A stretch of DNA of 64,000 bases from an uncultured Bacteroidales bacterium (GCA_945787885.1 CALZJF010000002.1:33264-97263), one strand, 5' to 3'. Shown: positions 45,993 to 64,000, counted from the stretch's first letter. Translations and numbers: made by a program. The notes: a model not told the origin generated them from the letters alone.

Positions 45993-46075
45993 ACAGGCCA
46001 TTTTTCCAAGTTCGTCCTGAATAGAACGACCTATCACCCGCAAAAACATCATTTGAACACGCAAAAATTTATTTT

Positions 46076-46610
46076 GAACACGAATTGCACGAATTACACG
46101 AATAATTTGCATCGGCATCCATACACATTCGGGAAATTCGTGTTATTCGTGTTCAATTTTTATCACGCAAAATATTGGGGGTGAACACGAATTACACGGA
46201 TTACACGAATATTTTGCATCGGCATCCATACACATTCGGGAAATTCGTGTTATTCGTGTTCAATTTTTATCACGCAAAATATTGGGGGTGAACACGAATT
46301 GCACGGATTACACGAATATTTTGCATCGGCATTCATACACATTCGGGCAATTCGTGTTATTCGTGTTCAATTTTTATCACGCGAAATATTGGGGGTAAAC
46401 ACGAATTGCACGAATTACACGAATATCGCGCGGCGGCATCCATACACATTCGGGAAATTCGTGTTATTCGTGTTCAATTTTTATCACGCAAAATATTCGG
46501 GTTGAACACGAATTGCACGAATCACACGAATGTGGCGCGGCGGCATCCATACACATTCGGGAAATTCGTGTTATTCGTGTTCAACATTTATCATGCGGAA
46601 ATTGGGGGTT
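46076..46610. repeat. Tandem array of 5 slightly divergent 107-bp units with the same REP-like arms
   Basis: Unit starts at 46076, 46183, 46290, 46397 and 46504. Arms GAACACGAATTRCACGRATTACACGAAT and ATTCGGGAAATTCGTGTTATTCGTGTTC. Confidence 0.95.
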
Positions 46611-47011: not shown

Positions 47012-49462
47012 CTATTTGATGCGAGGATAAGTGCCAGGCACATAGGTGTAGCGGTAGGCACTGCCGTGATTCTTCAACCACTCACGGTTAGCCGCGTTGG
47101 CAAAATAATTGGAGAACTCACCGTTATTGAGCTTTTCCATAAACAGATCGAGACCTTTGTTCAAACTCCAATGGTGCTCGAAAAATTCAATGTCAATCTG
47201 ATTGGAGACGATGAGCTCTTCGACAGAATTGACAAAGTCTTCCGACTGCATCTGAGACGTCAGGAGCGGGAAGCAGAGGCGGCCGGGAGCGAATGTGGGG
47301 TAGTCGGTCTTGGTAGGGTCGATATCTGAATTGAAATAGCAGCAGTAGGCGTAGCTGTTCACTGCATCGTATGCGCCGACGCCAGCATACGTGTGATAAT
47401 TGTCCTCTACGCTCTTATCCAGATTCTTCTCCGTGCCGCTGTGATAGCAGGAGACGAGCAGACCCTTGTTGTAACCGACGAGTCCGCCTATCGTACCGTT
47501 GCCCGTTGCCCATGCCTCTACTGCCCCGACGTGGGCGCAACCTATCATGCAGCTATTTTCTTCGATGGTGCCAATAAGGCTTCCGGAGTAAATCTCCTTG
47601 TTGGCAGGCTCCGTCTGCCGAATCTTTCCATCAGCATAGACGGCGCAGACGAGGCCTTCACAGTGGTTGGCCACGATGCCGCAGCCATCGACCTTCACAA
47701 CTTCAGAGAACTCAAGGTATTCCACCACGGAATTGGGACCGAGATGGAAGAAGAAGGGCTTACCCTTGAGGTTGCGGATGCTGCTGCCATTGCCTTGGAA
47801 GAAGCCGTTGAACCTACTTTCTTCATTAGCCTCATCGCAGTGAAGCCCAATGCCACACCAGTCGATGCACACGCTATCGGGCAGGAAGAGTTCGGGCTGG
47901 AGGACGATGTTGGCATCGAGCTTCACGTAGTAGCCCGTGAAGTCGAAGTAGGGCGCGTCGGCAGTGAGGGAGACGGACGTGCCGGAGAGATTCTTGTAAG
48001 TGACTGGCGTGCGGTTCGTTCCCTTTACCTCGTGGGCAAAGGAGACGAGCTCCTGCGCCGTGGAAATCAGGAAGGGGTGTGCCTGCGAACCATCGTTGCC
48101 GTAGATATCAGAGAGCTTCTGGGTGGTGGGATTGACATAGAGCCACGTGGCATCGTCCTCGGTGGCACGAGCGTCGCCGAAGATGGTGAAGTTGCTCCGT
48201 TGGAGCATTTCAGGCGTGAGCATGTTTTGCTTCTTATGAAGCTGACCATTGTCGGGCGTCTCAACAAACTGCCAGTCCATATACTCGGCGCCGACGGTCA
48301 TTTCCTCGTTCCGGTGGTTGAGGTTGATATGGATGGTGGTGCAGTATCCGCCTCGAAACTCTACTTCAGTGGGCATCTTGGCGGTATAGCGATGGGACTT
48401 CATGTTCGGCTGGAGCTTGGTGGAGGGGTCTTTCCATGGCTCCATCGGGTCTTGATAGCTGACGGTGAACTTCATGGTGAAATCCGAGCGCGTGGCAGGA
48501 ACTGCGAGGGCGTAGAAGACGAACTGCTTTCCGACTCCCGTTCCAGTTCCTTCCGGACGCGGAATCCATGCCTTCGTGTCCTTCTTCTGGTCATACTGGG
48601 GCGCAGCCTCAGGATAAAGGACGGCGAGCGCAGCCTGATCGTCGGCAGTCAGAGCCTGCGCGGCAGCAGAGCCTTGTCGCCATTTGTAGAGCGTAGGCAT
48701 ATCGGTATAAACCATATCGCTCACCCTCGACAAGACATCGGCGCTCTCATTGCTGGCAGAGAAGCCGGAGATGTTGACGATGACGCGCACGTTTGCCAAG
48801 GCGTGCTTGAAATAGAGCTTCGCTACGGAACCTCCCGGCTCGGCAAGTTTCTGCGTGTCGTAGGTGAGGAGGAGGTCGTCGCGCACGATCTTCGTGCTAT
48901 CGGTGTGGTCTATCGTATCATCGAGAATGAAAGGATTGCCGAGGGAACCGAAATACGTGTCGATGCCTATCTCCGTGCCTTCGGCATCCGTCGTGTAGCA
49001 AAGGGTGTGGCCCCAATCGAACGTCACCGCCTCTGCCTGCTGGGGGAGGCTGTAGCCGATGAAGGTGTGGGGATTGTGGGCATCGCTCCAGTAGATGCGG
49101 TCGGGCGTACGGGGCGGATTGGTATTGGTCTGGCCCTTCGTGTCATCGCGCGTCCATCCGCCGGAGGTCTGTCCCTCGCCCACGGCATGGGTATAGACGA
49201 TGCCGCGATAGGAGAATCCGTCGATGGGCTGACTCGTGCGTTGTATCTGCGTCAGCGTCAGCGCATCTTTGTCAATGAAACGGCTGCGGCCCACATAGAA
49301 ATCCTTGTCTAAGGCTGGGGCGCGCGAAGCCTTCTCCCCATCCACGCAGACTTCGATGCCGGAGAGGGGCACGGCGTCTTCGCCCGTGGGGAGATGCATC
49401 TGCTCTTCGGAGCAGCTCCAGAGGAGGAGGGAGAGCAGGAAGAGGGAAAAAAATTTTGCCAA
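47012..49462 (-). CDS. Type V pilin (Mfa-like) lipoprotein with C-terminal GLUG-like adhesin domain; TTG start
   Basis: Lipobox LWS-C, SRA site, LYFKHALANVRV, internal EYMDW, GSQAHPFLISTAQEL, FNGFFQGNG. Confidence 0.75.
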   Translation of the reverse strand: MAKFFSLFLLSLLLWSCSEEQMHLPTGEDAVPLSGIEVCVDGEKASRAPALDKDFYVGRSRFIDKDALTLTQIQRTSQPIDGFSYRGIVYTHAVGEGQTSGGWTRDDTKGQTNTNPPRTPDRIYWSDAHNPHTFIGYSLPQQAEAVTFDWGHTLCYTTDAEGTEIGIDTYFGSLGNPFILDDTIDHTDSTKIVRDDLLLTYDTQKLAEPGGSVAKLYFKHALANVRVIVNISGFSASNESADVLSRVSDMVYTDMPTLYKWRQGSAAAQALTADDQAALAVLYPEAAPQYDQKKDTKAWIPRPEGTGTGVGKQFVFYALAVPATRSDFTMKFTVSYQDPMEPWKDPSTKLQPNMKSHRYTAKMPTEVEFRGGYCTTIHINLNHRNEEMTVGAEYMDWQFVETPDNGQLHKKQNMLTPEMLQRSNFTIFGDARATEDDATWLYVNPTTQKLSDIYGNDGSQAHPFLISTAQELVSFAHEVKGTNRTPVTYKNLSGTSVSLTADAPYFDFTGYYVKLDANIVLQPELFLPDSVCIDWCGIGLHCDEANEESRFNGFFQGNGSSIRNLKGKPFFFHLGPNSVVEYLEFSEVVKVDGCGIVANHCEGLVCAVYADGKIRQTEPANKEIYSGSLIGTIEENSCMIGCAHVGAVEAWATGNGTIGGLVGYNKGLLVSCYHSGTEKNLDKSVEDNYHTYAGVGAYDAVNSYAYCCYFNSDIDPTKTDYPTFAPGRLCFPLLTSQMQSEDFVNSVEELIVSNQIDIEFFEHHWSLNKGLDLFMEKLNNGEFSNYFANAANREWLKNHGSAYRYTYVPGTYPRIK

Positions 49463-49481
49463 GGGGGAAAAGATGATTTTA

Positions 49482-49670
49482 GGTAGGTTCTATAAATTAG
49501 TTTTCAATGTAAGGCAGTGTTTCTGTCTTGCTTGGATGTCTTCACGCCTCTCGCACCGTATCTTTTTGTCTTTCATTCAGTCACGTAGCCCGCTACGCTC
49601 CCTCGTGAAAAACAAAAACCTACGGCACGATAGTCGCAAATACATCGCAAGCTAATTGATAGAACCTACC
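49482..49670. mobile_element. MITE copy 6, long form (189 bp), TSD TTTA
   Basis: Same TIRs; TTTA at 49478-49481 and 49671-49674; ~110-bp core absent from the short copies. Confidence 0.88.
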
Positions 49671-49698
49671 TTTAGATAGGAGGGGAGATAACGGTGTG

Positions 49699-50787
49699 CT
49701 ATGGGTTTGGCTCGGCGGGGGCGGGCTCGGCGGGCTTCAGCATGACGGAATAGGCACAGCCTTCAGCAAACTCCTGCTGCGCGAAGGCGATGCGATAGCG
49801 CCGCTCACCATCGCGCAGCCAAAACACGGGGGCTGCGGGGAGGACGCAGGGAGGAACGTAGAGCAGAAACTCATTTGCCTCGGGCGAAGGGCGGTGGCAG
49901 GTGTAAGTGGCAGTGTTGGGAATGGGGCCCCATATCCTCGCGTACTGCGTTTCGCCCAAATCAGTAGGGCCGCCCGAGAGCGTGGCGATGCTGGAACGCC
50001 CCTTGCCCTGACCATAAACGGCAGCGTCGCCTTCGGCAATGACCTCCACGCCCAGTACTTTGCCATTGAGGGCATAGCCGCAGGAGGCCTTTTCGCGGTA
50101 GGAGAACTTCTGGCTTTCATAGCCCATGGGGGCATAATAGTCGCCGACGACTATTTCTGCGCCATCAATGTCAGGCATTCCTTCGAGCGTGAGGACGGCG
50201 GCGGAGGTAAGAGGAGCGGAGAGCTGGGAAGCATCGACGGTGACACGGAGCTTCGCCACCTTATGCCGGAAGTTGAGATGCACCTCCTGCGCGCCCGTCT
50301 GCCGAACGCCCTGCGCCCAGAGGACATCGCTCTTCTTGAAATTCTCCGCCGTGCTCTGGTCGGCACAGAAGAAATTGCTGGGGCGGCTATAGCGATAGTT
50401 GTCAAAGACGAAGATGCGGGTGCCGGTGGTGTTCTGCGCCGTATAGATATATGTGGTGGCCTGCGACTGCACGCCGAGGGAGGCGACGAACGGACTGGCA
50501 TCCGTGATGGTCAGCTCATGGAAGGCAGAACTCCACGACTCGCCCAACTGGTGGTCGGAGGTATAAGGGCAGATGATTTTCATGCGGAACTTGTCGCCCG
50601 CCTCCCATTGGTCGCCCGCGACGCTGGTGCGGAGGGGGAGTTCGCCATCGAAGGGCGACATGGAAATGTGCAGCCGCACATCAGTCTCTCCGCCTGAAAG
50701 GTCAGGCAGCGCATCGTCCTGCGAGCAGGCTGCAAAGAGGCTGAGGGCAAGGACGAGGAGGATGGAGAAAAACGGCTTGTCGGACAT
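49699..50787 (-). CDS. Type V pilin (Mfa-like) lipoprotein lacking an obvious C-terminal donor strand
   Basis: Lipobox LFAA-C, PLRT, SDVLWA, LNFRHKVAKLRVTV; ends YSVMLKPAEPAPAEPNP. Confidence 0.7.
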   Translation of the reverse strand: MSDKPFFSILLVLALSLFAACSQDDALPDLSGGETDVRLHISMSPFDGELPLRTSVAGDQWEAGDKFRMKIICPYTSDHQLGESWSSAFHELTITDASPFVASLGVQSQATTYIYTAQNTTGTRIFVFDNYRYSRPSNFFCADQSTAENFKKSDVLWAQGVRQTGAQEVHLNFRHKVAKLRVTVDASQLSAPLTSAAVLTLEGMPDIDGAEIVVGDYYAPMGYESQKFSYREKASCGYALNGKVLGVEVIAEGDAAVYGQGKGRSSIATLSGGPTDLGETQYARIWGPIPNTATYTCHRPSPEANEFLLYVPPCVLPAAPVFWLRDGERRYRIAFAQQEFAEGCAYSVMLKPAEPAPAEPNP

Positions 50788-50803
50788 AGAAGGATGAAGG
50801 AGG

Positions 50804-53581
50804 TCAGTTAGGTTGTTCGATGGGATTCCAGGCATCTGCCTCGGCACCCGGACTATCGGGGAGCAAGGTGGGATAGCGATGCTGATAGCCCACGGTGTTC
50901 GACTCGAAGTGCATACGGCACGGATGATTGGCACCGCGGTTGGCGTTGTACCAGCGAATGGCATAGTTCATGGCGTGCCAAGGCGCGAGGCCATAGTAGT
51001 TTTTCCAGTCAGCAAGGTTGATGAGCGTTGACATCTCTACATCGTGGGTGAGAAAGTCATTCTTCGCCCGCAGGATGTCGGTGTTTCTGCCGCGGATGTA
51101 CTCGAGCAGGGAGTAGTCGTCGGGCGTTGTGCCTACGGCGTTGGCTTGGGGGGAGAGCTCCGTGTCATAGAAATTGCACATGAACGTCCTGAAGGATGGG
51201 AGTGCGGAGCAGTTGCGCGTGCTCTTCTGAGTGGCGAGGGAGATTTGGGGCTTGAAGACGGGGGTGGCATTGGCATCCGCGCCGATGAGGGCTCCGCCGC
51301 TGATGCCCCGGGCAGCCTGCATGCAGCCGAACATGTTCAGGCTGCTGGCAGTGCCGACGAGGGCTCCGCCGGCATCGCCGACATGGATGCAACCGACGAC
51401 GTATGACGTGCCGACCACGCCATCCTCCATCTGCATCACCGTGGCTATGCTGCTGCCGCTGCTGGGAGCGAGGAGCGAAATGCCCGCGATGTAGGTGGGA
51501 TTGACGGCTGTATGCAGGAGCGCAGTGGGATGGGTGCTCTCGATGCAAAGGTTCGTGATGGAGGCTCCTTCCATAGCGCGCCCATTGACATAGCCAAAGA
51601 GCTGCTCATTGCGCATATAGACATTGCTCAGCGTATGCCCTTGCCCATCGAATTTGCCCATGAAGGGAGTGGCGGCGGAGCTGCCGATGCTCTCCAGAGC
51701 CCAGTCGCTGAGGTCGAGATTGGCATTGAGCTTGACCTGAAAGTTCATGCGGAGGTCGTCGTCGTAGAAGGGGAAGGGGCCGCGCAGATAGTCGCGCTCG
51801 GTGTATGCGGCACGGTCGGCGTTGGCAGGATAGTAGCGGTCGTAGAAGATGTAGCCTTCCTGCTCGGCTTCTTCCTCTGTCACCCATTCAGGGTTCTTCT
51901 GATCGTTCGTGCGCGACCATCCGTAGGTGGCGGGTTCGCGGATGACCTGCCCGCCGACGATGGTCTCCGTGTAGGTCTTGACGAGGCGATAGAGGCCGGA
52001 GGTGCGCGTGGCGGCAGTGCCATTGACGAGGTTGATGAACTCCAGAAACTCCTTTTCGCTGGAAATCTCAAAGACGGGGTTGTAATCGCGCATGCCGGCG
52101 GCGGCGATGGCATCGGCGATGGCCTTCTTCCACCATTGATAGTAATCGGCATCGCCGGGGGTGGAGACGGGGCGTTCCACGATGGCAGACTCCAAATCCT
52201 GACTGCCGGCATCCTGCTCCGTCCACGAAAGGTTCTTATCGACTACGACGTAGAAGGCATTGTAGCGATAGCCGACGGTGAACGTATAGCTGACGCCGAC
52301 TTCCATCTTCAGGCCGTTGGGGAACATCTTGATGGGATTGCCATTGGCATCGGCGATGGTGTCGCCCTTCTCATCGCGCTTGACGACATCGTCGAGCGAG
52401 AAGATATGGTAGGTGCCCTCCACCTTGCCAATTTCGCTGTTCATTTCGTCGCCGTCATTGACGTCGTAAAGATAAACGCGGAAGCGGGTGTAGGGAGGCA
52501 ATACGAAAAGATTGCCCTTCTCTGAGCAATTGCACATATCGTAGGGGATGGTGATGAAATAATGACCACCATTGATGCCGCAGAAGAAGGGGCGTTTGGC
52601 TTTCGTCTCTACTTCTTCCGTGGTGCAGGCTCCGAAATTCAGGAAGCACTGGTCGGGCTGCTCTTCGAGCCGCCGGACTTGGTCGTCGCTGAAGTGATTC
52701 CAATACGTGGTATCTACGGCTTTGAGCGTACCATTGTCAATATTTACTCCGGCGGGCATACACATTCGGCGATAGACCTGCGTGACGGCCTCGCACTCCC
52801 TCTGTGCCTGCTCATCGGTCTTGCCCGCCTCGGTGGAGGCATTGTCGTTTTCGGTCGTATCGTGGTTGTCGGGATATTTATAATCCTTCCATCCGTCCGG
52901 CCGACTGGAGCCGTCGGGCCTGATGTTGGCGCAGATTTCAACTCGCTGGATAGCATTGCCGCTGGCCTTGACTTTGAAGCAGATGCGCGCGCCCTGATGG
53001 TTGAGCACGAGAGGGATGCCCTCGGTCGGGCCAGAGGCGTTCACCCAGTCGGCAATGCAGAAGTCGGGATAGAAATAACTTTTGCTGGCATTGCGCAGGG
53101 AGTTGTTGAAGTTGCTCTGGCTCCATGCCCTGAAGCGCAGTGAGCGGCCGTTGTCCCAAGTGAGGGAGTCGGAGGCTTTCTGTGTGAAGGCTTCGTAAGT
53201 GCCATTGCGGTCGAGGTCGTCATAGCCCTTCCGCCCGGCTTCGGGAAGCCAGTCGGTGCCGAGATTGATATTGCCCGCAGCATAGCGGTGCATGAGATAA
53301 TAGGTGCGGTAGGCTGTATTCGCCTCCCATCCCGTGCCGTCCGTCTTCAGGTAATTGCGATAAATGCGCATACGGTCGTTCTGGTTGAACGAACCATTGT
53401 CGTTGCTGGTATAACTGGTAGCGCGCGTGGAGAATTGGTCGGCAATGGAGGGGTTGAAATTGACCGCACGGCCCAACAATGCCTGCTGTTGTTCGGGCAA
53501 ATGCCATTCATCCTGCTGACAAGCCGTGACGACGGTTGCCAGCAGGATGAGAAAGACAGTATGTAATAATTTCTGCAGCAT
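50804..53581 (-). CDS. Type V pilin lipoprotein with C-terminal GLUG-like adhesin domain
   Basis: Lipobox VVTA-C, FSTRAT, LVLNHQGARICF, FMGKFDGQGHTLSNV. Confidence 0.72.
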   Translation of the reverse strand: MLQKLLHTVFLILLATVVTACQQDEWHLPEQQQALLGRAVNFNPSIADQFSTRATSYTSNDNGSFNQNDRMRIYRNYLKTDGTGWEANTAYRTYYLMHRYAAGNINLGTDWLPEAGRKGYDDLDRNGTYEAFTQKASDSLTWDNGRSLRFRAWSQSNFNNSLRNASKSYFYPDFCIADWVNASGPTEGIPLVLNHQGARICFKVKASGNAIQRVEICANIRPDGSSRPDGWKDYKYPDNHDTTENDNASTEAGKTDEQAQRECEAVTQVYRRMCMPAGVNIDNGTLKAVDTTYWNHFSDDQVRRLEEQPDQCFLNFGACTTEEVETKAKRPFFCGINGGHYFITIPYDMCNCSEKGNLFVLPPYTRFRVYLYDVNDGDEMNSEIGKVEGTYHIFSLDDVVKRDEKGDTIADANGNPIKMFPNGLKMEVGVSYTFTVGYRYNAFYVVVDKNLSWTEQDAGSQDLESAIVERPVSTPGDADYYQWWKKAIADAIAAAGMRDYNPVFEISSEKEFLEFINLVNGTAATRTSGLYRLVKTYTETIVGGQVIREPATYGWSRTNDQKNPEWVTEEEAEQEGYIFYDRYYPANADRAAYTERDYLRGPFPFYDDDLRMNFQVKLNANLDLSDWALESIGSSAATPFMGKFDGQGHTLSNVYMRNEQLFGYVNGRAMEGASITNLCIESTHPTALLHTAVNPTYIAGISLLAPSSGSSIATVMQMEDGVVGTSYVVGCIHVGDAGGALVGTASSLNMFGCMQAARGISGGALIGADANATPVFKPQISLATQKSTRNCSALPSFRTFMCNFYDTELSPQANAVGTTPDDYSLLEYIRGRNTDILRAKNDFLTHDVEMSTLINLADWKNYYGLAPWHAMNYAIRWYNANRGANHPCRMHFESNTVGYQHRYPTLLPDSPGAEADAWNPIEQPN

Positions 53582-53625
53582 GGGGATATGGTGTAGCACC
53601 TTTTACTTTGGCTGTATCTTCAATT

Positions 53626-56268
53626 TTATTTATAGACGGGCATGGCGGGACGATGGTCGGACACGGGCTGATCAGTGTTTTCCTTGCAATTCTCCACATT
53701 GCCCGTAATCGTTCCATCACCGAACAGCTTGGCACCCTTGACTGTGAGATTGAGCACCTCTGCGCGCCAGCCAGTCCGTGTAGCATCGTCCTTATAAGGA
53801 ATCCAATAATCCCCTTCTTTATGGACGTTGGCTTCATACTCTCCCGTATAATTAGGCGTAGTCTCCTGCTTCGTGGAGTAAATGCCATTGAGTCCGGCAA
53901 AAAGTGCAGTGCCGGAAGTGTGAGGGATGATGATGTAGAACACCGACGGCTTGACATAGAGCTTAAAAGAACCTGGGGCATCGGGTACATAATACTCACC
54001 TGCCATGACTTGCGCCAATGTGGGATGACGCTGGATGTATTCATCCCGGGCTGGAGTTTTGACGGTAGCGGTGGTAGCCTTAACGGAAGAGGGAAGAACC
54101 ACATAGTCATGGCTCGCCTCTCGGGAGCCTGCGCCCACATAGTACTCTGTTCCTGTGCCGCCCTCTATGGGACGAGTGAGGAGCGTACGTTTGTCGTACG
54201 TCTTGCCACCTATGGTATAGAGGTCGGCATCTGTATAATTGACAGATTGGAGCGTGGTTTTGACATAGGAAACGCCATTGACGGTGGCCAGCTCATCTTC
54301 CGCATAATAGACTGCGGGATGATGCACCTTCTCATACAACGATTCAGGAAGGGCGAACTGCGCGGTGACGACGTTGGATATACCCTCCGGCTTTGTGGTA
54401 TAGAGCGGAACTTGCTGCTCATAGAGGGCATAGTTCGTGGTCTCCTGATATTCCTTCCATTCCTCGCCCGTATGCGTCAGAGTAATAGTGTGATACTGAA
54501 GGTCGTCCTGCCCGAAGGCATCGAGGTGCCCCGTGAAGACGAAAGTATCCGGGAGCAGGCGGGCATCAATCTCCATGTCGAGACTGAGGTTGAAATAGTC
54601 GCCGTGGTGCGCTCCCCCCTCGTGGGCTTCGGAGAAATATTTAATCCAGGTTTTCTCGCTGAGGTATTGCCCCGTGGCATCATCTTCGCCCGTCGTGCCT
54701 TCATCGTAAAAGCCACCATCCGTCACCTTGTCGCCACCATCATTGACATACGAGTCCTTGCGGCGCGTATAGGCGCGCTGCCACGAGCTGCCGGCAATGG
54801 AGAGTTTATTGCCGTTCTTGTTATCGACACCGTAGTACCAGTCGGTGGAAGTGGTCTCTTCCCACTTCTCCGAACCCGAGGTATTGTAGTCGATGCCTTC
54901 GCGGGAGATATGCAGATACACGATGGTCTCATAGTTGGCATCGAGGTCGAACACGAACTCCTTTTCGTAGGTCAGCCCGTTCTCAAGAGTGACGAGGAAG
55001 TCTATCTTGTTCTTCCTGCCGGCTATCTTCTGCCGTTCGGTTTCATCATTGTAGCCCGCCTCGTCGTACATCACATTGTCGTAGGAGGTATAGGTGGGAC
55101 GCACGATGAGGTCATAGATGGGCACTTCGCTGAACACCATCCGCTCATAGCCCTTGTCAGCAACGGCCTTGTTGCCGGCAGCGACGGCATCGACTTCACT
55201 CTTGCCGCCACTGATGGCTTTGTTGTAGGCATTGAGATAAATGGCGTTGATGGCAGAATAGCCTTGGCTTTTGGGGTAGAATGATTCCTTTTTGCCGATG
55301 TAGGCCACGATTTGGGATTCTTCGCCATAGAAATGCGGCACCACCTTTCTCACCTTCTCAGCCCACGTAGGTGTGAGGGTGTGGAGCTGCGTCGCGCCGT
55401 CATAGACATCCTTCACGCCGGCGAGGACATCTACGTTGCAGAAACGAATGGAGGAGGAGTTGGGGTCATCGCCCTGCACCACGCCATCTATCTCTACCGA
55501 CTTCGCATAGCCCTTGATGGTGGTTTCGAGAGTGGGGTCGATGAGGATGTATGCCAACACATGGGCAAGGCGATGGCGGAAGGGGAGGATAATGCGGGAG
55601 ACAGTGGCGGAGATGTGGGTGTTGGCAGGCATTCCGAGGTAGTGGGAGAGGAGGGTGTAGTTGCCCAATGCGCCGTCGTCGCCGACGCTGACATCGCCGC
55701 TTTGGTTGGTGGTCAGATGTTCCACCTTCGTGACCGTGGTGTTCGAGCCATTGACGAGGGTGCGATCTTGCTCAAGCTCAGTCACAACGTTGGTATAACG
55801 AATGCGGTTCGGCACGAGCACTCCCTCGAAATAATGAGCACCATTGTCCATCCAGCGCGCCTTCTCCGTCGTTTCCGTACCGTCGGCAGCACGATAGTTG
55901 AAGGTATAGACGGCATATCCGCTGTTGGGGTTGGTGTCGTAGAAATCATCGTTTGACGTTCCGCCCTGCAACTTCAGGATTGCCTCTCGCTTCGTAGCCG
56001 GTTTGCCCACCTTTCCATACGTGATGTCCAGCCCTTTCTTGAGGGGCTGTATCAGCCAGGCCACTTGCTCGGCAGGCATCGTCTCGCCCGCCGCACGGCT
56101 TTGCGGTGCTGCCTCTTCCGCTATCAGCATGTCAGCAGCATCCACGCCAATCTCGATAGGACTGCCCACGCCCTCATCGCCGAAGGCCCAGACGGAGTCT
56201 TCGGTGCAGGAAGGAAGAAGAGTGAGGACGGCGGATGTCCAGACGAGAAGGGGAATATACAGGCGCAT
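53626..56268 (-). CDS. Type V pilin lipoprotein with C-terminal extension (alternative start 56286)
   Basis: Lipobox LLPS-C, QSRAA, LPFRHRLAHVLAYI, internal SEKWEE. Confidence 0.7.
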   Translation of the reverse strand: MRLYIPLLVWTSAVLTLLPSCTEDSVWAFGDEGVGSPIEIGVDAADMLIAEEAAPQSRAAGETMPAEQVAWLIQPLKKGLDITYGKVGKPATKREAILKLQGGTSNDDFYDTNPNSGYAVYTFNYRAADGTETTEKARWMDNGAHYFEGVLVPNRIRYTNVVTELEQDRTLVNGSNTTVTKVEHLTTNQSGDVSVGDDGALGNYTLLSHYLGMPANTHISATVSRIILPFRHRLAHVLAYILIDPTLETTIKGYAKSVEIDGVVQGDDPNSSSIRFCNVDVLAGVKDVYDGATQLHTLTPTWAEKVRKVVPHFYGEESQIVAYIGKKESFYPKSQGYSAINAIYLNAYNKAISGGKSEVDAVAAGNKAVADKGYERMVFSEVPIYDLIVRPTYTSYDNVMYDEAGYNDETERQKIAGRKNKIDFLVTLENGLTYEKEFVFDLDANYETIVYLHISREGIDYNTSGSEKWEETTSTDWYYGVDNKNGNKLSIAGSSWQRAYTRRKDSYVNDGGDKVTDGGFYDEGTTGEDDATGQYLSEKTWIKYFSEAHEGGAHHGDYFNLSLDMEIDARLLPDTFVFTGHLDAFGQDDLQYHTITLTHTGEEWKEYQETTNYALYEQQVPLYTTKPEGISNVVTAQFALPESLYEKVHHPAVYYAEDELATVNGVSYVKTTLQSVNYTDADLYTIGGKTYDKRTLLTRPIEGGTGTEYYVGAGSREASHDYVVLPSSVKATTATVKTPARDEYIQRHPTLAQVMAGEYYVPDAPGSFKLYVKPSVFYIIIPHTSGTALFAGLNGIYSTKQETTPNYTGEYEANVHKEGDYWIPYKDDATRTGWRAEVLNLTVKGAKLFGDGTITGNVENCKENTDQPVSDHRPAMPVYK

Positions 56269-56275
56269 AAGTTTG

Positions 56276-59200
56276 TTAGAAATCATTATCGTAGTCAGGC
56301 ATCACACTATTGCGTTTGCCAATCACTTTCTCTTCACTGAGCCCTTCAGCCCACGTGTGTGCGCCGACGGCATCGAGCTGCCACCAGTTACCGACACTGG
56401 GATTGTCAGCGTCCATACCATTTTTCACGGTATTGATAGAGGAGGAAGAGGCGTAGCAAGTATAGGCGATGATGGCGGCTTTTGAAGATTTGTCGGTGCT
56501 CTCGGCCGTCGCCCGCACCGCGCTGAACCAGCTCGTGCAGTCAGCAATCTGCAGACAGGGGTCTTCTGCCCCCTTGGGGACCGTGCCGCCGACGATGCCG
56601 CCATAGTAATTATTGACAGACCCCTTGGCAGCAGTAGAATTTGCAGCGCCGGAGACGGCATCGGCAGTATTGCCGAGATAGACGCTCTCAAGGATTTTGG
56701 CTCTTGCAGCGCAGGCAACGATGCCGCCGGCATAGTGCTTGGCCTGCGTACCGAGGGTTTCGGGCATCCACATCCTGACGGGCACTTTCACCTTGCAGTT
56801 GGCGACGGTGGCACCGCCGTATGCCCAGACCACGAGTCCAGCAGCCGTGGCGGCCTGGACGTTGATGTCCGCCGTGGCGGCCTTCACCTGGATATTGCTG
56901 AGCCTGCCCTTCGTGCCATAGACGGCATACGCCAGGGGGGCGATGGCGTCTTCGGCGGAATATTCGTTGCTGCTGTTCACCGAGGGCTTTGCCACCAGGG
57001 AGTGTTCGAGCAGGAGGGTGAGGTCCTTGATTTCGCCCAGCACATAGTTGAAGAGCATGGGGGCTGTGGTGTATTGCGTGGCGTCGCCTTCCGCCGGCCC
57101 CTTGCCCGTGGTGGTTTCCACCGTTTTGGGGTCGGTCGTACTGCTGCGCAGGGTGATGGTCTTGCCGTTGCCGTCGAGGTTGAAGCGGACGTTGTTCGCG
57201 GCATTGAGGTCGTCGGCCACGACTTTGCCGAACGGCCAGTCAGTGCCGGGGGTTGCCGTGCTTTCTACCGCGAAACTCTGGGAGATGCGGTAGTGCTTGT
57301 CCGCAACATTGTAGCCGCTACTCATGATTTGCTTCAGGTCTTCCTGACAGTCGATGACGGCATTGAATTTCGGCCCGGCGTAGGCATTGGGATTCGTCTG
57401 GTCGTTCTCGTCTGCAGGGTTGCAACGGTTGAGGGCAACCGTCGGCCAGGCGTTGGAATAGGCCCGCAGGGCAGAGGCAGTGGCAAAGATATTCTTGAAG
57501 CGGTTGGCCTCCTGCCGGACGGTGATGCCGTATTCGAATGTATTGGAGGAAACACGTCCGCCGGCATAGCCCACGATTCCGCCTCCCATCACTGTGCTTT
57601 CGCCATTCACGGCGGCATTGACGGTGCATCCGTCAATGACAGCCATCGACGTTTCGTCCTTGCTGACGGAGACAGCGGCCAAGCCGCCTATGTAGTTCTT
57701 ATAGGTATGCCCGTCTTCTGCCGTGATGTCGCATCCCTCATCGCCCCATACGGGGAGCGTGGAGGAACACTGGTAAATCGTGCCATGATTCAGCCCGACG
57801 AAGGCGGCGACGGTGGCTTTCGCCGTCGTCCCTTCATGGGCGACGCTGACATTCACGCGCTCTATCGTGCCATCGTTCTGCCCCGCCACTACGTAAGGCA
57901 CCGTGGTGCCGTCAGGGACGAGGATGGTGCCATTGGCGAGGTTGCCCGACGAGGAGATTTTCCGGAAGAGTTGATGCGATGTGGAGAGCTGGCATCCCGC
58001 CAGGTTGAGGGTGGCATTCAGGTCGTAGTCTGTTGTCCAGTCATCGGGAAAATCGAGGGGCAGTTTCGGAGGCTGTATGATGCCCACACTGCCTTGGCAG
58101 TTCTTCTTGGGGTCGCTCAGAAAGTCTATGAGTGCCTCGCGGCTGGCGATGACGATGGGGTCGCCGTTCTGCCCGTAGTCGTCGCAGATGGTGCTGGTGG
58201 CCACCTCCGTCCAGTCTTCTATCCACGCCGTGATGAGAATCTTCCGGCTTTCGCGCGAGAGGGTGACCTCGATGGTCAGATGTTTCCCTGCTTCGAGGTT
58301 ATAGGCTTCATCGGCAGCTGCCTGCTCTTCAGTCGTACCATTGACATAGCGCTGGTCGTTGGAGGCATAGAAGGAGAAGTGCTGGGTGGAGAGATTGATT
58401 TTGGCAATGATGTCCTCGTCCTTCCGTTCGGCATAGTTGTGCGGCATGACGATGGCGTCATAGCGCGTCGAACTGACGCCCGTCTGTTCGGGGCCGTTCT
58501 TGTCGGCAGGATAATCGATGAGCACCTCCTTAGCCCAAGGCTGATTGATGGTGATGGCCTCCTGCTCGTCCTGCTCGTAACTGCTGATGGCCATCTTGAT
58601 GTTGCTCGCAGCGTTCTGAAAGTTCAGGGCTTCGCGCTGCACGCCCTCGCCAGCGCGGAGGATGACGGTGATCCATGCCCGCTGATGACGCATGAAGAGG
58701 GGAATCTTCTTATATGCCTCCGTGTCCATCAGCGAGGGGCCGAGCCATGCCTGATTGGCTTTGTACCACTCCTTGCTTGTCATGGAGAGCATCTCGTCAG
58801 GACTATTGCCCGTTCCGGCATCGGCATCCCAGATGGGCAGATAGGAATGCCCCGCGAGGTGGTCCATGGCGAGCCATTTCTCCTGACTGCCTTGGTCGGC
58901 GGAGAGGGGGGCGGCGTTGGCAACGGCTTTGAAGCCCCACTGATTGACATTGTCTTGCCAATAGAGGGGCGTGGCGTTCTCCTCCACTTTCAGGGTGCCG
59001 TCGTAGCCGGCTATGGGATTCTCCTCGCCGGTGGTCTGCGTGGGGCGATAGGTGCTGCTGCCTTGGGGGGAATCTTCCCCTTGGCGATACATTTCGATGG
59101 TGAAATGATAGTCGTGACTGACGGGCTTGAATGAATCCACGCGCTGCTGCCATTCTTCCTTCGTCGTGCGCAGTGCGCGGCTGTCGTCGGGCACGAGCGT

Positions 59201-59329
59201 GGTGAAGGCGATGGGGCTCCCCTCCTCTATCGCATCGTCGCCGCCGAGCCACGTCCAGTCGTCGCCGTGGCAACCCGCGAGGGGCAACAGCGTCAGGAAG
59301 AGCAGAAGATGAGGGAGAAAACGTTTCAA
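56276..59329 (-). CDS. Type V pilin lipoprotein with C-terminal beta-helix/GLUG-like adhesin; TTG start
   Basis: Lipobox PLAG-C, ALRTT, LFMRHQRAWITVIL, internal WIEDW, FNLDGNGKTI. Confidence 0.72.
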   Translation of the reverse strand: MKRFLPHLLLFLTLLPLAGCHGDDWTWLGGDDAIEEGSPIAFTTLVPDDSRALRTTKEEWQQRVDSFKPVSHDYHFTIEMYRQGEDSPQGSSTYRPTQTTGEENPIAGYDGTLKVEENATPLYWQDNVNQWGFKAVANAAPLSADQGSQEKWLAMDHLAGHSYLPIWDADAGTGNSPDEMLSMTSKEWYKANQAWLGPSLMDTEAYKKIPLFMRHQRAWITVILRAGEGVQREALNFQNAASNIKMAISSYEQDEQEAITINQPWAKEVLIDYPADKNGPEQTGVSSTRYDAIVMPHNYAERKDEDIIAKINLSTQHFSFYASNDQRYVNGTTEEQAAADEAYNLEAGKHLTIEVTLSRESRKILITAWIEDWTEVATSTICDDYGQNGDPIVIASREALIDFLSDPKKNCQGSVGIIQPPKLPLDFPDDWTTDYDLNATLNLAGCQLSTSHQLFRKISSSGNLANGTILVPDGTTVPYVVAGQNDGTIERVNVSVAHEGTTAKATVAAFVGLNHGTIYQCSSTLPVWGDEGCDITAEDGHTYKNYIGGLAAVSVSKDETSMAVIDGCTVNAAVNGESTVMGGGIVGYAGGRVSSNTFEYGITVRQEANRFKNIFATASALRAYSNAWPTVALNRCNPADENDQTNPNAYAGPKFNAVIDCQEDLKQIMSSGYNVADKHYRISQSFAVESTATPGTDWPFGKVVADDLNAANNVRFNLDGNGKTITLRSSTTDPKTVETTTGKGPAEGDATQYTTAPMLFNYVLGEIKDLTLLLEHSLVAKPSVNSSNEYSAEDAIAPLAYAVYGTKGRLSNIQVKAATADINVQAATAAGLVVWAYGGATVANCKVKVPVRMWMPETLGTQAKHYAGGIVACAARAKILESVYLGNTADAVSGAANSTAAKGSVNNYYGGIVGGTVPKGAEDPCLQIADCTSWFSAVRATAESTDKSSKAAIIAYTCYASSSSINTVKNGMDADNPSVGNWWQLDAVGAHTWAEGLSEEKVIGKRNSVMPDYDNDF

Positions 59330-59348
59330 GATGGAGAAGGATTTGGGG

Positions 59349-60644
59349 TTAATTGTCGATGGTGCCATCGGTCTTGTATTCGAGTTCGCTGGCAGGCACT
59401 ATCCAGTCAGAAATCTCCGTGCGGATGATGGCAAGCGTTCCGCGGCGAAGCTCGATGTTCCAGATATATTTGTAGCCGCTTCGGAGGTTTTTCAGGTTTT
59501 CGTCGGCGACGACGTAGGTGACCTCATGGAGAATCGAGGTCGATGCCTCCTTCCAGGTGATGCGGATGGCCTGAAGTTGGCCGAAGGCGATGGCATTGTA
59601 TGCCTTGAGATAACCCGTGGGGTAGCCCCAGTTCTTGTCAGCTCCAGCCTCGCTGTCAAGCATGTCGAACATTTCAAAGGAGGTGCCGTAGGGGTTTCGC
59701 TGCAGCTCTGAGTCGGGGAACTGCGAGATATCCACGGTCTTGTAGGTCGTTGTCGCCAGCTCGCCCTGCGCATTGATTTGCGTGAAGACGTAGGCGGTGT
59801 CGGTGATGCCGAGGAGCTCCACTTTCTGAATGTCGTCCTTGGAGAGAACGACGGAGAGGTCGGCAGAACCCTTGATGTTCACCTGAATTTGGCTGAACTG
59901 GTGCTTGAAATAGAGGTTCACGCGGTTGGCACTCTGCGTAGCACCGAGGGGTGACTGTATGGTGAGGGCTTGGCAAATGTCGGGCTGATCGGTGATGCGC
60001 TCTATCGTCTGCTCTGCTCCGTGGGAGTCGCGGCGCGGGGCGCGCGTGAGATTGAAGGCGTTGGCACGTATTTCTCCCAGCGAAACATCGGCGGGCTCGA
60101 ATTTCAAGCCGTTGGAGCCCTTCGCGTCAGTACCGACGATGGTCGTGGCGTGGTTGAGGTCGGTCCAGGCGAGGAAGGCGTGCGGCCGGCGGTTCTGCCA
60201 GTAGAAGCAGGTGGCACTGTCGTCGTTGCCATAACTGTCATACTGCGTAGGCTCGGCGTATGCCCGGTTCCAATAGAGCGAATTGCCCATCGTGCCGCTC
60301 ACCTTCATCCAAGTCGTGATGTCTGTGCCGTTCGCCACGTCGAAGTCTTTCACGGCAGTGTCGGCAGAGGCGATGTAGTACATTCGGCAGACGAAACGGT
60401 GGGCATCGGGCATATAGTAGGTGGCACCGGGGGTGATGTTGGTGCCTTCCCGGGCTTCTCCGGCGCGCGTTCCCACCTGATTGGACGTTGTTCCGGCGGC
60501 GAACTGCACCATTTCGCCCTGCATCGGATGGAAATCGTCAGGACATCCGTCGGACGACGCTGCATCCACACAGCCGGCGAGCAGTAACAAAGCTGCTACT
60601 GCTACACAGACGGACAGGGAGACATGTGGGAGGAGATTTTTCAA
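59349..60644 (-). CDS. Type V pilin (single Mfa-like domain, C-terminal donor strand); TTG start
   Basis: Lipobox LLAG-C, VGTRAG, LYFKHQFSQIQVNI, C-terminal TEISDW. Confidence 0.75.
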   Translation of the reverse strand: MKNLLPHVSLSVCVAVAALLLLAGCVDAASSDGCPDDFHPMQGEMVQFAAGTTSNQVGTRAGEAREGTNITPGATYYMPDAHRFVCRMYYIASADTAVKDFDVANGTDITTWMKVSGTMGNSLYWNRAYAEPTQYDSYGNDDSATCFYWQNRRPHAFLAWTDLNHATTIVGTDAKGSNGLKFEPADVSLGEIRANAFNLTRAPRRDSHGAEQTIERITDQPDICQALTIQSPLGATQSANRVNLYFKHQFSQIQVNIKGSADLSVVLSKDDIQKVELLGITDTAYVFTQINAQGELATTTYKTVDISQFPDSELQRNPYGTSFEMFDMLDSEAGADKNWGYPTGYLKAYNAIAFGQLQAIRITWKEASTSILHEVTYVVADENLKNLRSGYKYIWNIELRRGTLAIIRTEISDWIVPASELEYKTDGTIDN

Positions 60645-60711
60645 GATAGGTTTTCTATGGAAAGAATAGGGGAAATGGGGGCTGTATATGCACATCACGC
60701 TCAGGACGCAC

Positions 60712-60797
60712 CACTTTTGGGGGTCAAACAAATCACTTTGAGGGGGCGAAATGACCACTCTGAGGGGCGAAAATGACCACTTGGGAGGGAAAAACAC
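60712..60797. repeat. 22-bp periodic array inside the pilin locus
   Basis: CACTTTTGGGGGTCAAACAAAT / CACTTTGAGGGGGCGAAATGAC / CACTCTGAGGGGCGAAAATGAC. Confidence 0.75.
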
Positions 60798-60808
60798 ATG
60801 CGCCGCGG

Positions 60809-62788
60809 TTAATCCCAATCCAGGGAGGCATTGCCATTGCCTGTGGTTTCGTCCCACGCCTTGACGAGGGCTCTGAAAGTGATGGCTTCCTTGGTCAGAT
60901 GAATGGTATATTTGTAGTGCTGACCGCGCTGCCACGCGGTGATGGGGCTGGAGGAGCCGTCCTGGCAGGTGTTGAGCTGAAGTTTGTAGGTCGTGCCGTC
61001 CGCCAGGGTGATGAGGAGGGAGGCATCGGGAAGCGTTTGGGGAACGACGCAGTATTCATCGAGGGCTGCTTCACTGCCTACTTTATAATTGGCAGGGCGG
61101 AAGCCGGAGATAAGAGTCGGTTTGACGGCGGCAGCCTCAAAACTGATATTGCCCGTCAGCATATCCAAGGTTCCTGCGTCAGAGAGATTCGTGATGGAGA
61201 TACGCGCGCCTGCCAGTGCGACGGCATCAGCACCCTCGGAAGTGGTCAGATTGACCGTCACCTTGCTCATGACGTGCTCGAAATGCAGGGGGACATCGCC
61301 CGTGCGAGGGGTCAGCCGTACCTCTTCCGCCGTTCCTACCTTCGCCTTGTCAGCATCAGCGTCGCAAGCGTAGCCCCAAAGCACGTCGGATCCTTGCAGC
61401 ATGGCAGTAGTGGCTGATGTGGGAGAGAGGGCGCGGAAATATGAGGCATCAGACTGGCCGGCCCAGTAGATGGCGGGATCGTAGTTCCAATCGGGGTCAG
61501 CCCATGTCAGGGTTGTGCTTTTCGTGTCGAAACTCTGCGTGTTGCTCTTATAGATGTCTAATCCTTCGGCCCGCAGCTGTTCGTCGATGCTGCCCTTAGC
61601 CGTAATGTCAGGGTTGAACTGTATGATGCCTGTGCCGGAAGCCTCAACGACTGTCCAATCTTTCAGCGTGGCAGAAACACTGACCCCTGCCTTGCTGACG
61701 CTGACGTTCAGGACATAGTTGTAGCCCGGCTGCATTTTGCCACCTTGCAGCCCCTTGCCCCAGCTACCATCCTCAAGCAGCCCGCTCGTGACCTTCACTT
61801 CGTAGTCATTGTTCTCCACATTGGATATTTTCAGGAGTGCATGGCCCTCAGTGAGGAGCGTCTGGGGAACGACGATGGCCTGGAAGGTAGAGGCGTTTTT
61901 ATACATCTTCACTGTGCCAACGTCATAGCCGGGGGTTGATTCCGCTTCCGCTATTTTCAGCGTAGGCGCAAGGGTCTTGCATCGGCGGTTCATGCCTTGC
62001 AGCTCCACGGTGGTAGCACTGAGGGCATCGTTGCCAAAGCCATCCGCAGCCTCGACGTTCACCGTCACCATACTCATGGCATGGGTGTAGGGGAGCATCA
62101 GTGTGCCGTGACTGCTGCTTGCGCTCGTACCATGAACGTAGCTGACGGGAGTCTGCTCCGCGCTCCAGAGGAGGTCGGCATGGCGGAAGTCGGCCGCTTC
62201 GGTCTGGTCGTAGGGGATGCGCCATTCCAAGGTGCCGTCTGCCGCGACGAAATTGCTGGCGAATCGATGTCCGCCGTTGTAGCAATAGCCGTAGTAGCTT
62301 TGCAGATAGTGGTTGTCCGTGGCGATATGGGTAGCATCGCCTTTGCCGCCTGCGCTGAAATCATCCCAAAAAAGGGTGGGCATAGCGGTCAGATCGGAGG
62401 TCTGCATGGTGTTGGCAGGGGTAAGCCCAAGGGCTGCACCCGTGCCAATGGGGGTGATATCGCCGTCACCGCTGTATGCGACATTGTTGCCTGAGCCTTT
62501 TATGAAGCGCACTAACTTGGGGCTATTCTGCACATTGACCACGTTTCGCTCTGCCGCTCCACCCTCCCACGTGACATGGCGAAGATAAGCCCACAGCGTA
62601 TCGCCCTGCGCAAAATCCTTCCCCGTGGCCCTGACAGCAGGAGCCGAACGATCCAGCAGGGCTGCCACCTGCACGGGGGTCTTCGTCTCACCGTTGAGGT
62701 AAGGCGTTTCCCATTCAGCTTTGTCAGTGCAGCCCATCAGCACTGCGGTGAGGAGGAGGAGGTATAGAAGGTGTTTCGTCATGGTCAT
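60809..62788 (-). CDS. Type V pilin with two tandem Mfa-like domains
   Basis: Lipobox VLMG-C, AVRAT, HAMSMVTVNV and HVMSKVTVNL, strands ATLKDW (internal) and LVKAW (terminal). Confidence 0.78.
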   Translation of the reverse strand: MTMTKHLLYLLLLTAVLMGCTDKAEWETPYLNGETKTPVQVAALLDRSAPAVRATGKDFAQGDTLWAYLRHVTWEGGAAERNVVNVQNSPKLVRFIKGSGNNVAYSGDGDITPIGTGAALGLTPANTMQTSDLTAMPTLFWDDFSAGGKGDATHIATDNHYLQSYYGYCYNGGHRFASNFVAADGTLEWRIPYDQTEAADFRHADLLWSAEQTPVSYVHGTSASSSHGTLMLPYTHAMSMVTVNVEAADGFGNDALSATTVELQGMNRRCKTLAPTLKIAEAESTPGYDVGTVKMYKNASTFQAIVVPQTLLTEGHALLKISNVENNDYEVKVTSGLLEDGSWGKGLQGGKMQPGYNYVLNVSVSKAGVSVSATLKDWTVVEASGTGIIQFNPDITAKGSIDEQLRAEGLDIYKSNTQSFDTKSTTLTWADPDWNYDPAIYWAGQSDASYFRALSPTSATTAMLQGSDVLWGYACDADADKAKVGTAEEVRLTPRTGDVPLHFEHVMSKVTVNLTTSEGADAVALAGARISITNLSDAGTLDMLTGNISFEAAAVKPTLISGFRPANYKVGSEAALDEYCVVPQTLPDASLLITLADGTTYKLQLNTCQDGSSSPITAWQRGQHYKYTIHLTKEAITFRALVKAWDETTGNGNASLDWD

Positions 62789-62925
62789 GTGGGGGTGTTT
62801 GTTTCAGGGATATTGACATCGAGCGTCAATGCTGCCGAGAGGTCGTTGAGGAGGAAGTATTGCCCGCGCTGGAGTTCCTGCGATTGGCTCATGCACCGAT
62901 GGCGAGGCCATGCGCAGTCATGAGG

Positions 62926-64000
62926 CTACATCCAAATGTCTTCGCTGCCCGTCACGTCCGTCCAATCCTTCAGGGTGGCACTGACCTTGATGCCCGTCTT
63001 GGTGATGTTCAGCGTATAGATATAGCGTTTGCCAGGCTCCCACGCGGTGATGGTCTTGCCATCGACCTTGATATTCTTGATACCCAGCACCGTCTCATAG
63101 ACATCCGTATTCGTGCCGTCGCCTATGGTAATGCGGAACTTCAGGTCGTCGTCTGCGGCGTTCGTCAGACTCTGTGGGACAACGGCATTGCGGTAGTTGG
63201 CATGCTGATTCGTAAGAGCGCCGTCGATGCCATTATCGTTTGTCATCTCGAAATCCGCTGTTGTCTTGCCCGTGAAGTCAGACGTTCCATCGGCAAACTT
63301 AATCATGCCTTCCGTGTAGCCATTGATGATTTTCACCTTGGTATGTTCGTTGATGGAAATGCCATTGGCAAGGGGGTTGCCCGAAGCGTCTGTGCTCGTT
63401 GTGAGTTTAACGATTACCTGCGCCATGGCATACTGGAAGTTCATGTGCAGCAGACCTTCGTCGGCGTGGCTACTGCCATCGGGGGCATCGGTAGCGCAGA
63501 TACCTTCTGTGTTATGCCCATTCTTGCAAGTCTCATCGGGCGTTCCGTCAGCCTTGCGAGGCATTCCGAGCATCAGGCACGAGGGGTACGTGTTTGCTGA
63601 ATAGTCGCAATTTTCGACCGCAATGCCAGTTGCCGACACATCTGCTGCGGCAGGACCTCCCGTCTCCCCAACCTGCGGCCAGACTCCACGGAAGAAATAG
63701 TGCGTCTGATGGTCGGGCCAATAGAGCTGCGGGGTCATGGTGTATTTGCTGTCAGCATAACTCATCTGAGCCTTATCTTCGCCGCCATTATAAGGCCCTG
63801 CCGTCTTATTTGTGCTGCGATAGAGGGTAAAGTCTTTCGTAAAGTTTTCCAATCCATTAGTCTCCGTCACCACTTGTCCGTAGCACTTTCCGAAATTGAT
63901 GATAGGCGTTTCGTTCGCAGCCGTCACCGTGTCCCAGTCCTTAATGGTTGCCGTGACATCGACGCCAGTTTTATTGACGGTGACATTCAGCACATAGTTC
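62926..64000 (-). CDS. Multi-domain type V pilin; 5' part lies beyond the window edge
   Basis: Internal ATIKDW, MNFQYAMAQVIVKL, terminal WEPGKRYIYTLNI..ATLKDW. Confidence 0.75.
   Translation of the reverse strand, partial: NYVLNVTVNKTGVDVTATIKDWDTVTAANETPIINFGKCYGQVVTETNGLENFTKDFTLYRSTNKTAGPYNGGEDKAQMSYADSKYTMTPQLYWPDHQTHYFFRGVWPQVGETGGPAAADVSATGIAVENCDYSANTYPSCLMLGMPRKADGTPDETCKNGHNTEGICATDAPDGSSHADEGLLHMNFQYAMAQVIVKLTTSTDASGNPLANGISINEHTKVKIINGYTEGMIKFADGTSDFTGKTTADFEMTNDNGIDGALTNQHANYRNAVVPQSLTNAADDDLKFRITIGDGTNTDVYETVLGIKNIKVDGKTITAWEPGKRYIYTLNITKTGIKVSATLKDWTDVTGSEDIWM

Follow-up and report, generated by a model that had tools for sequence, protein, structure and literature searches.

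Positions 47012 to 64000 of a 64,000-nucleotide stretch of DNA from an uncultured Bacteroidales bacterium (GCA_945787885.1 CALZJF010000002.1:33264-97263; the whole stretch is referred to as the window) carry, on the minus strand, seven complete open reading frames (ORFs) and an eighth, cut ORF (g06), separated by gaps of 0 to 236 bp. A first-pass annotation of the window had placed eight ORFs at these positions, as found here, and had interpreted them as a large type V (FimA/Mfa-class) pilus locus with one stalk and interchangeable adhesin tips. The genome is a draft of 2.7 Mb in 96 contigs with 53.5% G+C. On the same contig, the locus continues for 13.7 kb upstream of the window, to ~77.7 kb in window-relative coordinates. 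The complete operon spans ~31 kb and comprises 14 genes on the minus strand, the window containing its downstream half to two thirds. The genes were numbered g00 to g13 in transcription order, and L001 designates the coordinates of the contig sequence read beyond the window. The set consists of a DUF3575 barrel (g00), a DUF5119 anchor-type lipoprotein (g01), and 12 Arg-site lipoproteins (g02 to g13), as follows.

g00, L001 14506-15981, minus strand: 491 amino acids (aa); Pfam DUF3575, an outer-membrane barrel family.
g01, L001 13337-14509, minus strand: 390 aa; Pfam DUF5119 (30.4 bits); lipobox, without an Arg site.
g02, L001 9705-12407, minus strand: 900 aa; lipobox; VTRA; C-terminal extension.
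g03, L001 8382-9695, minus strand: 437 aa; Mfa_like_1 above the cut-off.
g04, L001 5669-8158, minus strand: 829 aa; two Mfa_like_1 stretches.
g05, L001 3311-5626, minus strand: 771 aa; two Mfa_like_1 stretches.
g06, window 62926..64000 (C-terminal 357 aa), whole gene L001 1190-3304, minus strand: 704-aa double-module pilin.
g07, window 60809..62788, minus strand: 659-aa double-module pilin, each module closing with a DW/AW strand and a tail.
g08, window 59349..60644, minus strand: single-module pilin of ~431 aa; TRA; conserved tail past the W strand.
g09, window 56276..59368, minus strand: 1030 aa; SRA; pilin module to residue ~392, then two tandem beta-helix modules.
g09 beta-helix module a, window 57299-58195, minus strand: residues 392-690; aligned by hhalign to the C part of g13 (g13C).
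g09 beta-helix module b, window 56279-57298, minus strand: residues 691-1030; aligned by hhalign to module a.
g10, window 53626..56286, minus strand: 886 aa; LLPSC; TRA-type site; LPFRH; body and 400-aa C-terminal part without a recognisable family.
g11, window 50804..53581, minus strand: ~925 aa; TRA; pilin-like N part; GLUG / M26_N-type module in the C part.
g11 beta-helix core, window 51260-51748, minus strand: residues 618-780; matches GLUG / Peptidase_M26_N repeat proteins.
g12, window 49699..50787, minus strand: 362 aa; short pilin-fold lipoprotein; no W strand and no donor tail.
g12-g13 spacer, window 49463..49698, no strand: 236 bp, with a hairpin-rich insertion.
g13, window 47012..49462, minus strand: 816 aa; last gene of the operon; Cys17; Arg site between R47 and A48; pilin module ~30-397; tail/linker 396-410.
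g13 beta-helix module, window 47015..48232, minus strand: residues 411-816; GLUG / Peptidase_M26_N-like.

The start of g08 is likely the TTG at position 60644, according to the family consensus and the sequence. The ORF of g11 extends to position 53599, Met7 being the likely start.

The lipobox and the Arg site that the first-pass annotation had reported for the seven complete window genes were all present. A lipobox Cys occurs in every gene from g01 to g13, within the sequences LLWSC (g13), LFAAC (g12), VVTAC (g11), LLPSC (g10), PLAGC (g09), LLAGC (g08), VLMGC (g07), and LFAAC (g06) for the genes of the window. An Arg is located 25 to 45 residues past this Cys in every gene from g02 to g13, at SRA (g13), LRT (g12), TRA (g11), SRA (g10), SRA (g09), TRA (g08), and VRA (g07) in the window. 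In g01, no Arg is present within ~60 residues past the lipobox Cys, indicating an anchor type. Family alignments were built for each gene from g03 to g13 with orthologues from up to 59 other species. The lipidated Cys was kept and a T-R-A consensus was found at the Arg site in each of the eleven families, g12 having LRT in its own sequence and TR in the family consensus. In g02, which is outside the alignment set, VTRA occupies the place of the Arg site in the protein's own sequence. Judged from these alignments, conservation of the putative cleavage site across the families is far beyond chance.

The L-x-F-x-H motif, reported initially for all eight window genes, takes the broader form L-x-hydrophobic-x-H when the eight are considered together and is exact or nearly exact in most genes. 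It is exact in g13, g12, g10, and g08, and is present in both modules of g07 with Tyr at the F place in the first. In g06, the first module, which lies outside the window, has the exact motif, and the second, in-window module has MNFQY instead. The motif is degenerate in g09 (LFMRH, L-x-M-x-H) and g11 (LVLNH, L-x-L-x-H). The W strand is terminal and followed by a 10- to 18-residue tail in g03 to g08, this tail being family specific and conserved within each family. Three of these genes (g06, g07, and g08) had been described as stalk type with a terminal DW/AW strand, as we find. The one gene described as lacking the strand is g12, whose family reaches the C terminus right after the last core strand, with no W strand and no tail. 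The published criterion, according to which tip and adaptor pilins lack donor strands, would assign g12 to these subunits. Large domains follow the W strand in g02 (in this clade), g09, g10, g11, and g13. All four extensions previously noted in the window are thus present, and the internal strand preceding them was located in g09 (EDW at 385), g13 (MDW at 396), and g11 (LSW near 458), where the conserved tail runs on into the large extra domain, its assignment being uncertain in g10.

Pfam Mfa_like_1 scored above its cut-off of 27 bits in eight genes (g03 to g08, g12, and g13), with 29.1 bits for g13, 35.8 for g12, 33 for g08, 149.2 for g07 (two stretches), and 58.7 for the in-window part of g06 (108.3, in two stretches, for the whole protein). 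g09 remained below the cut-off (22.4 bits), and neither g10 nor g11 had a Pfam match. In g02, the domain was missed by the protein scan and recovered in the g02 frame by a six-frame search of the genome (42 bits, above the cut-off). A single gene outside the operon contains Mfa_like_1 in this genome (G000:C6:48453-49148, a 338-aa frame, 111.6 bits). NCBIfam searches returned no match for any of the eight window proteins, and sequence searches of the PDB returned nothing for g13, g09, g01, and g00. BLASTP comparisons among the proteins of the locus linked g04 to g07 only, the remaining links requiring family profiles. Profile alignments with hhalign matched the pilin module of g09 to g06 (E 2.6e-14) and g07 (E 7e-12), g12 to g07 (E 1.5e-11), and the N part of g11 to g12 (E 4.6e-8).

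An AlphaFold2 model of g13 was computed with 56 relatives and had a mean predicted local distance difference test score (pLDDT) of 84.7. Comparison with structures of the Mfa1/FimA class, which the first-pass annotation had suggested, produced Foldseek matches of the N half of the model to solved type V pilins, with E from 1e-8. These include BF2867, BVU_2522, BACUNI_00621, BACOVA_04980, Mfa2, Mfa3, and Mfa4 (E 1e-8 to 1e-2, probability of up to 1.0) and, by structure entry, 4h40, 4qb7, 4k4k, and 3ufi together with Mfa2 and Mfa3 (E 1e-8 to 6e-4). The modelled N half of g13 is a type V pilin fold. In the model, Arg47 lies in a low-confidence loop past the first strand (residues 30-40), a position like that of the cleavage sites of FimA (Arg46) and Mfa1 (Arg49) (PMC13655056). 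The fold of g13, the Mfa_like_1 domains of eight operon genes, and the conserved Arg sites bear out the assignment of the locus to the type V pilus class.

Each of the proteins g04 to g07 contains two Mfa_like_1 stretches and is a double pilin. In each case, the segment duplicated within the protein is the C-terminal domain of the pilin with its L-x-F-x-H motif, W strand, and tail (hhalign E from 1e-10 to 1.7e-22). In g07, residues 200-391 align with residues 463-658 (E 1.7e-22), and the internal duplication of g06 was detected with an E of 7e-17.

The extensions of four window genes had been described as mostly GLUG-like, and this description holds for g09, g11, and g13. Pfam GLUG (PF07581) itself remained below its cut-off of 20.5 bits in g09 (13.9 bits, E 0.073) and g13 (7.8 bits, E 6.6) and gave no match in g10 and g11. 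Precomputed Pfam assignments include GLUG in 3 of the 120 g09 relatives listed. The C half of the g13 model, which displays regular short strands at residues 598-711, matched the streptococcal IgA1 protease 7uvl_P (Foldseek probability 0.99, E 0.028), and nearly all of the 142 relatives of g13 have the same pilin-plus-module length. Residues 614-782 of g11 matched giant repeat proteins (E 1e-28 and 2e-16), which themselves score with Pfam GLUG (1e-53) and Peptidase_M26_N (1e-31). Alignment of family profiles by hhalign connected g13C to the C part of g11 (E 4.3e-15), module a of g09 to g13C (E 5.8e-7), and modules a and b of g09 to each other (E 1.3e-8). An earlier hhalign comparison of g13C with the C part of g09, made with close relatives only, was weak (probability 64.5) and improved with more diverse orthologues. 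Since profile, transitive, and fold evidence agree, homology of the extensions of g09 (two copies), g11, and g13 as beta-helix modules of the GLUG / IgA1-protease N-terminal type is supported. The C-terminal extension of g02 is of another kind, with ~430 aa of Ig-like repeats (weak matches to Pfam CopC and MG2). It is common to a relative of the same family (51% identity over residues 2-881) and absent from Xylanibacter-type orthologues, which end near residue 470.

The place of g10 is less clear. A scan of 48 sequences, comprising g10 and 47 aligned relatives, gave no Pfam match, and none of its >395 relatives has an assigned name. Its AlphaFold2 model was weak (pLDDT 65.5), and the structural comparison produced no significant match, the best Foldseek hit having an E of 0.039 and a probability of 0.14. 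Against the other families, hhalign detected leader matches only; for the body of g10 compared with eight pilin families, E was >0.01 throughout, the LPFRH segment being aligned with the motif of the partner in six of the eight. The C-terminal extension is unrelated to the beta-helix modules of g09, g11, and g13. These comparisons suggest that g10 is a lipoprotein with a pilin-type leader and a body of no recognisable family. The initial count was of at least eight pilins; the locus is larger and has twelve Arg-site subunits, and the pilin fold of g10 was unconfirmed by Pfam, AlphaFold2, Foldseek, and hhalign. Within g10, a Gly/Asp/His-rich stretch at residues ~515-565 (window 54600-54750; GDKVTDGG...GGAHHGDYF) is nearly invariant in the 48-sequence alignment and of low confidence in the model. 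This stretch could serve in metal binding or catalysis. Residues ~604-795, in the middle of the protein, vary or are lacking in distant orthologues.

The g09 family was found at 61 loci in a collection of species-representative genomes. Carriers include Xylanibacter ruminicola KHT3, D31d, and Ga6B6, X. brevis ATCC 19188, and Prevotella sp. MA2016, as well as many metagenome-assembled genomes from horse, rumen, and other guts labelled Prevotellaceae, Bacteroidaceae, Muribaculaceae, Cryptobacteroides, or Minthosoma. All 14 proteins were mapped on these loci, and the order of g09 to g13 was scored on the 45 loci where the sequence extends for 8.5 kb or more past g09. Comparison of tip-gene content among relatives, proposed in the first-pass annotation, gave the opposite of what interchangeable tips had led to expect, namely, an invariant set: g09, g10, g11, g12, and g13 were each present in a single copy, all on one strand and in unchanged order, at 45/45 loci. 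The upstream order g02-g03-g04-(g05)-g06-g07-g08 was also kept, the sole variation being the presence of three or four double pilins. A metagenome contig with called genes has the identical layout, and a genome of the same family keeps the whole of g00 to g06 upstream, with ~66 bp between g01 and g02. Each gene forms its own orthologous family. Median identity to the proteins of this genome was 33-41% for the extension-bearing genes versus 31-40% for the others. Thus, the extension-bearing (tip-type) genes evolve no faster than the other genes of the operon.

The operon has a patchy distribution. A search of 24 same-genus genomes did not find g13, and full-length g11 was present in 3 of the 150 other genomes drawn from the family (six of the same genus), none of the three belonging to that genus. 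On these two results, the operon is not a clade marker. The genes flanking the locus differ and are unrelated from locus to locus. The flanks had been suggested as a place to look for a regulator or an invertase, and no invertase, shufflon, or regulator was found there.

In known type V pili, subunits are exported as lipoproteins, cleaved after an Arg, and joined by insertion of a C-terminal donor strand, with an uncleaved anchor and donor-less distal subunits (PMC13655056). The parts list of the operon fits this published logic, since it contains lipoboxes, Arg sites, tails, the Arg-less g01, and the donor-less g12 (PMC13655056). Features shared with Mfa1-5 and FimA-E of Porphyromonas gingivalis include pilins that are lipoproteins and, in the families with fold, Pfam, or profile support, have the two-domain beta-sandwich fold, an Arg site past the anchor strand, putative C-terminal donor tails on stalk-type subunits, an Arg-less anchor, and several accessory subunits without such tails at the operon end (PMC13655056). 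The locus differs by its twelve pilin-like genes, in comparison to four or five in P. gingivalis, with seven donor-bearing subunits and four double-module pilins. It also has a DUF3575 barrel and a DUF5119 anchor in place of Mfa2/FimB, and no Arg protease of the gingipain type was assigned here. Mfa5, which depends on the type IX secretion system, contains a vWA domain, whereas the accessory subunits encoded here carry beta-helix modules and are lipoproteins.

Tip proteins combining a pilin with a binding domain, and many pilin genes per genome, are known in Bacteroides. They comprise the tip pilin BovFim1C and the tip pilins BfrT, BthT, and BunT diversified by diversity-generating retroelements, each consisting of a pilin and a C-terminal binding head and encoded at the operon end (bioRxiv 10.1101/2024.11.15.621889). 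The present locus shares with these systems the pilin module followed by an extra binding domain and the presence of anchor and stalk genes in the same operon. The heads of BovFim1C, BfrT, BthT, and BunT have a C-type-lectin fold and are often hypervariable, whereas those found here are GLUG / M26_N beta-helices, several per operon, and conserved. The C half of g13 and residues 618-780 of g11 resemble, respectively, streptococcal IgA1 proteases (7uvl and 7uvk) and giant repeat adhesin-like proteins. In the present operon, by contrast, the module is joined to a type V pilin, scores below the Pfam GLUG threshold, and is not followed by a protease domain. Our literature search turned up no account of this operon, of double-module pilins, or of pilin-GLUG fusions.

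Together, these observations make it probable that the product of the operon is a type V (FimA/Mfa-class) fibre at the cell surface, fixed and complex in composition, with a conserved adhesive distal complex. The subunits would be exported as lipoproteins, cut after the Arg by a protease, and linked through insertion of C-terminal strands, in the manner of FimA and Mfa1. The base would be provided by g01, and the stalk and adaptor segments by the tail-bearing g03 to g08, and by g02 too where the extension is absent. The products of g09 to g13 would form a distal complex presenting several beta-helix binding modules simultaneously, comparable to Mfa3-5 on a larger scale. Since the gene set and order are invariable, each subunit is likely to have its own place in the structure. 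The same set and order recur in gut and rumen species, dozens of them uncultured and a few cultured, which argues for a fixed multi-part machine rather than for swappable tips.

Several points weigh against this interpretation. Five or six donor-less subunits in one linear fibre require a non-linear tip complex or donation by internal strands. The sole Peptidase_C25 (gingipain-family) match of the genome (G000:C21:11372-12517, a 1341-aa frame) may be the PorU protein of type IX secretion and not an Arg-specific protease that processes pilins. We did not accept g10 as a demonstrated pilin, for lack of a Pfam match, a significant Foldseek match, or a profile match of its body, and the pilin module of g11 is backed by profile matches to its N part only. 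Finally, synthesis of the set from a single transcript is not certain, as g01 and g02 are separated by a repeat array of 930 bp in this genome. The only copy of the Bacteroidetes-type promoter motif TAnnTTTG among the intergenic regions is located 50 nt upstream of g00, which suggests that g00 to g13 are transcribed as one unit, and the gaps between most genes of the operon are 0 to 45 bp.

A related account, which we consider somewhat unlikely, is that the fibre is an ordered heteropolymer in which about a dozen subunits would follow one another in one fixed sequence through the specificity of donor tails for grooves, with double pilins complemented in cis and with g02, g09, g11, and g13 acting as internal-strand donors bearing side-arm domains. 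Such a fibre would be studded with several binding modules (beta-helix or Ig-like side arms) rather than tipped by one. Filling of the second module of a double pilin in cis by the tail of the first, and internal-strand donation, would both be undescribed for type V pili. In the chaperone-usher P pilus (PapG-F-E-K-A-H), subunits occupy fixed places owing to the specificity of donor strands and grooves. The P pilus is an analogue and not a relative, since fold, strand polarity, and assembly machinery are unrelated, and ordered assembly is only suggested here by the fixed gene set.

The combinatorial adhesin repertoire put forward in the first-pass annotation corresponds to a homopolymeric stalk, made of any one of g02 to g08 and capped by any one of g09 to g13, giving mixed fibres with different adhesins per cell. 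Subunits without a free donor strand are restricted to the distal end (PMC13655056), five such genes occur here, and the beta-helix modules differ in sequence, so that different ligands are possible. However, alternative tips are expected to vary in number and kind between lineages and to be gained, lost, and shuffled, whereas all five genes are found once and in the same order at every scored locus, from Xylanibacter to Muribaculaceae and Cryptobacteroides. The tip-type genes are also no more divergent than the stalk-type genes, and the model leaves the conservation of seven different donor-bearing pilins unexplained. We therefore regard interchangeable tips as unlikely and favour the fixed-composition fibre. 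Quite improbable is the absence of any fibre, the pilin folds serving as lipid-anchored or short pedestals of separate surface lipoproteins or of a very short stalk-less adhesin complex: polymerisation has never been demonstrated for many Bacteroidales lipoproteins of the "fimbrillin family" and g10 has no detectable pilin fold, but the Arg site is conserved in all twelve families and has no known role other than the initiation of strand exchange, the family-specific C-terminal tails are conserved in g03 to g08, and the subunit at the head of the operon is of the anchor type and lacks an Arg site.

Bacteroidales adhere mainly by type V pili, which are understood only for the Fim and Mfa systems, of five genes each, from a single oral pathogen. 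Here, twelve subunit types occur in strict order across lineages of rumen, horse gut, and other guts, including the culturable Xylanibacter. The operon makes it possible to test how subunit order is set, whether a donor strand works inside a polypeptide, and what GLUG-type beta-helix modules bind. It also corrects a simple reading of such loci, in that many tip-like genes need not mean a variable adhesin repertoire.

Repeats are found in several spacers and flanks of the operon. The hairpin-rich insertion of the g12-g13 spacer (49463-49698) is located directly upstream of g13, and other, mostly shorter spacers occupy this place in related loci. The g07-g08 spacer contains a 22-bp unit repeated 2.2 times (window 60734-60781) immediately before the probable TTG start codon of g08. 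Arrays of CACGAAT-type sub-repeats, resembling repetitive extragenic palindromic sequences and bacterial interspersed mosaic elements (REP/BIME), lie after g13 (window 46075-46609), between g01 and g02 (L001 12547-13306), and upstream of g00 (L001 16227-16773), with periods of 107, 121, and 106-127 bp. Because the same-family relative has just ~66 bp between g01 and g02, the array at this position is read as an insertion, which may split or modulate the operon. Near the end of the contig, a DUF1016_N fragment precedes a gene (L001 19285-19773) for a very-short-patch mismatch endonuclease of the Vsr type.

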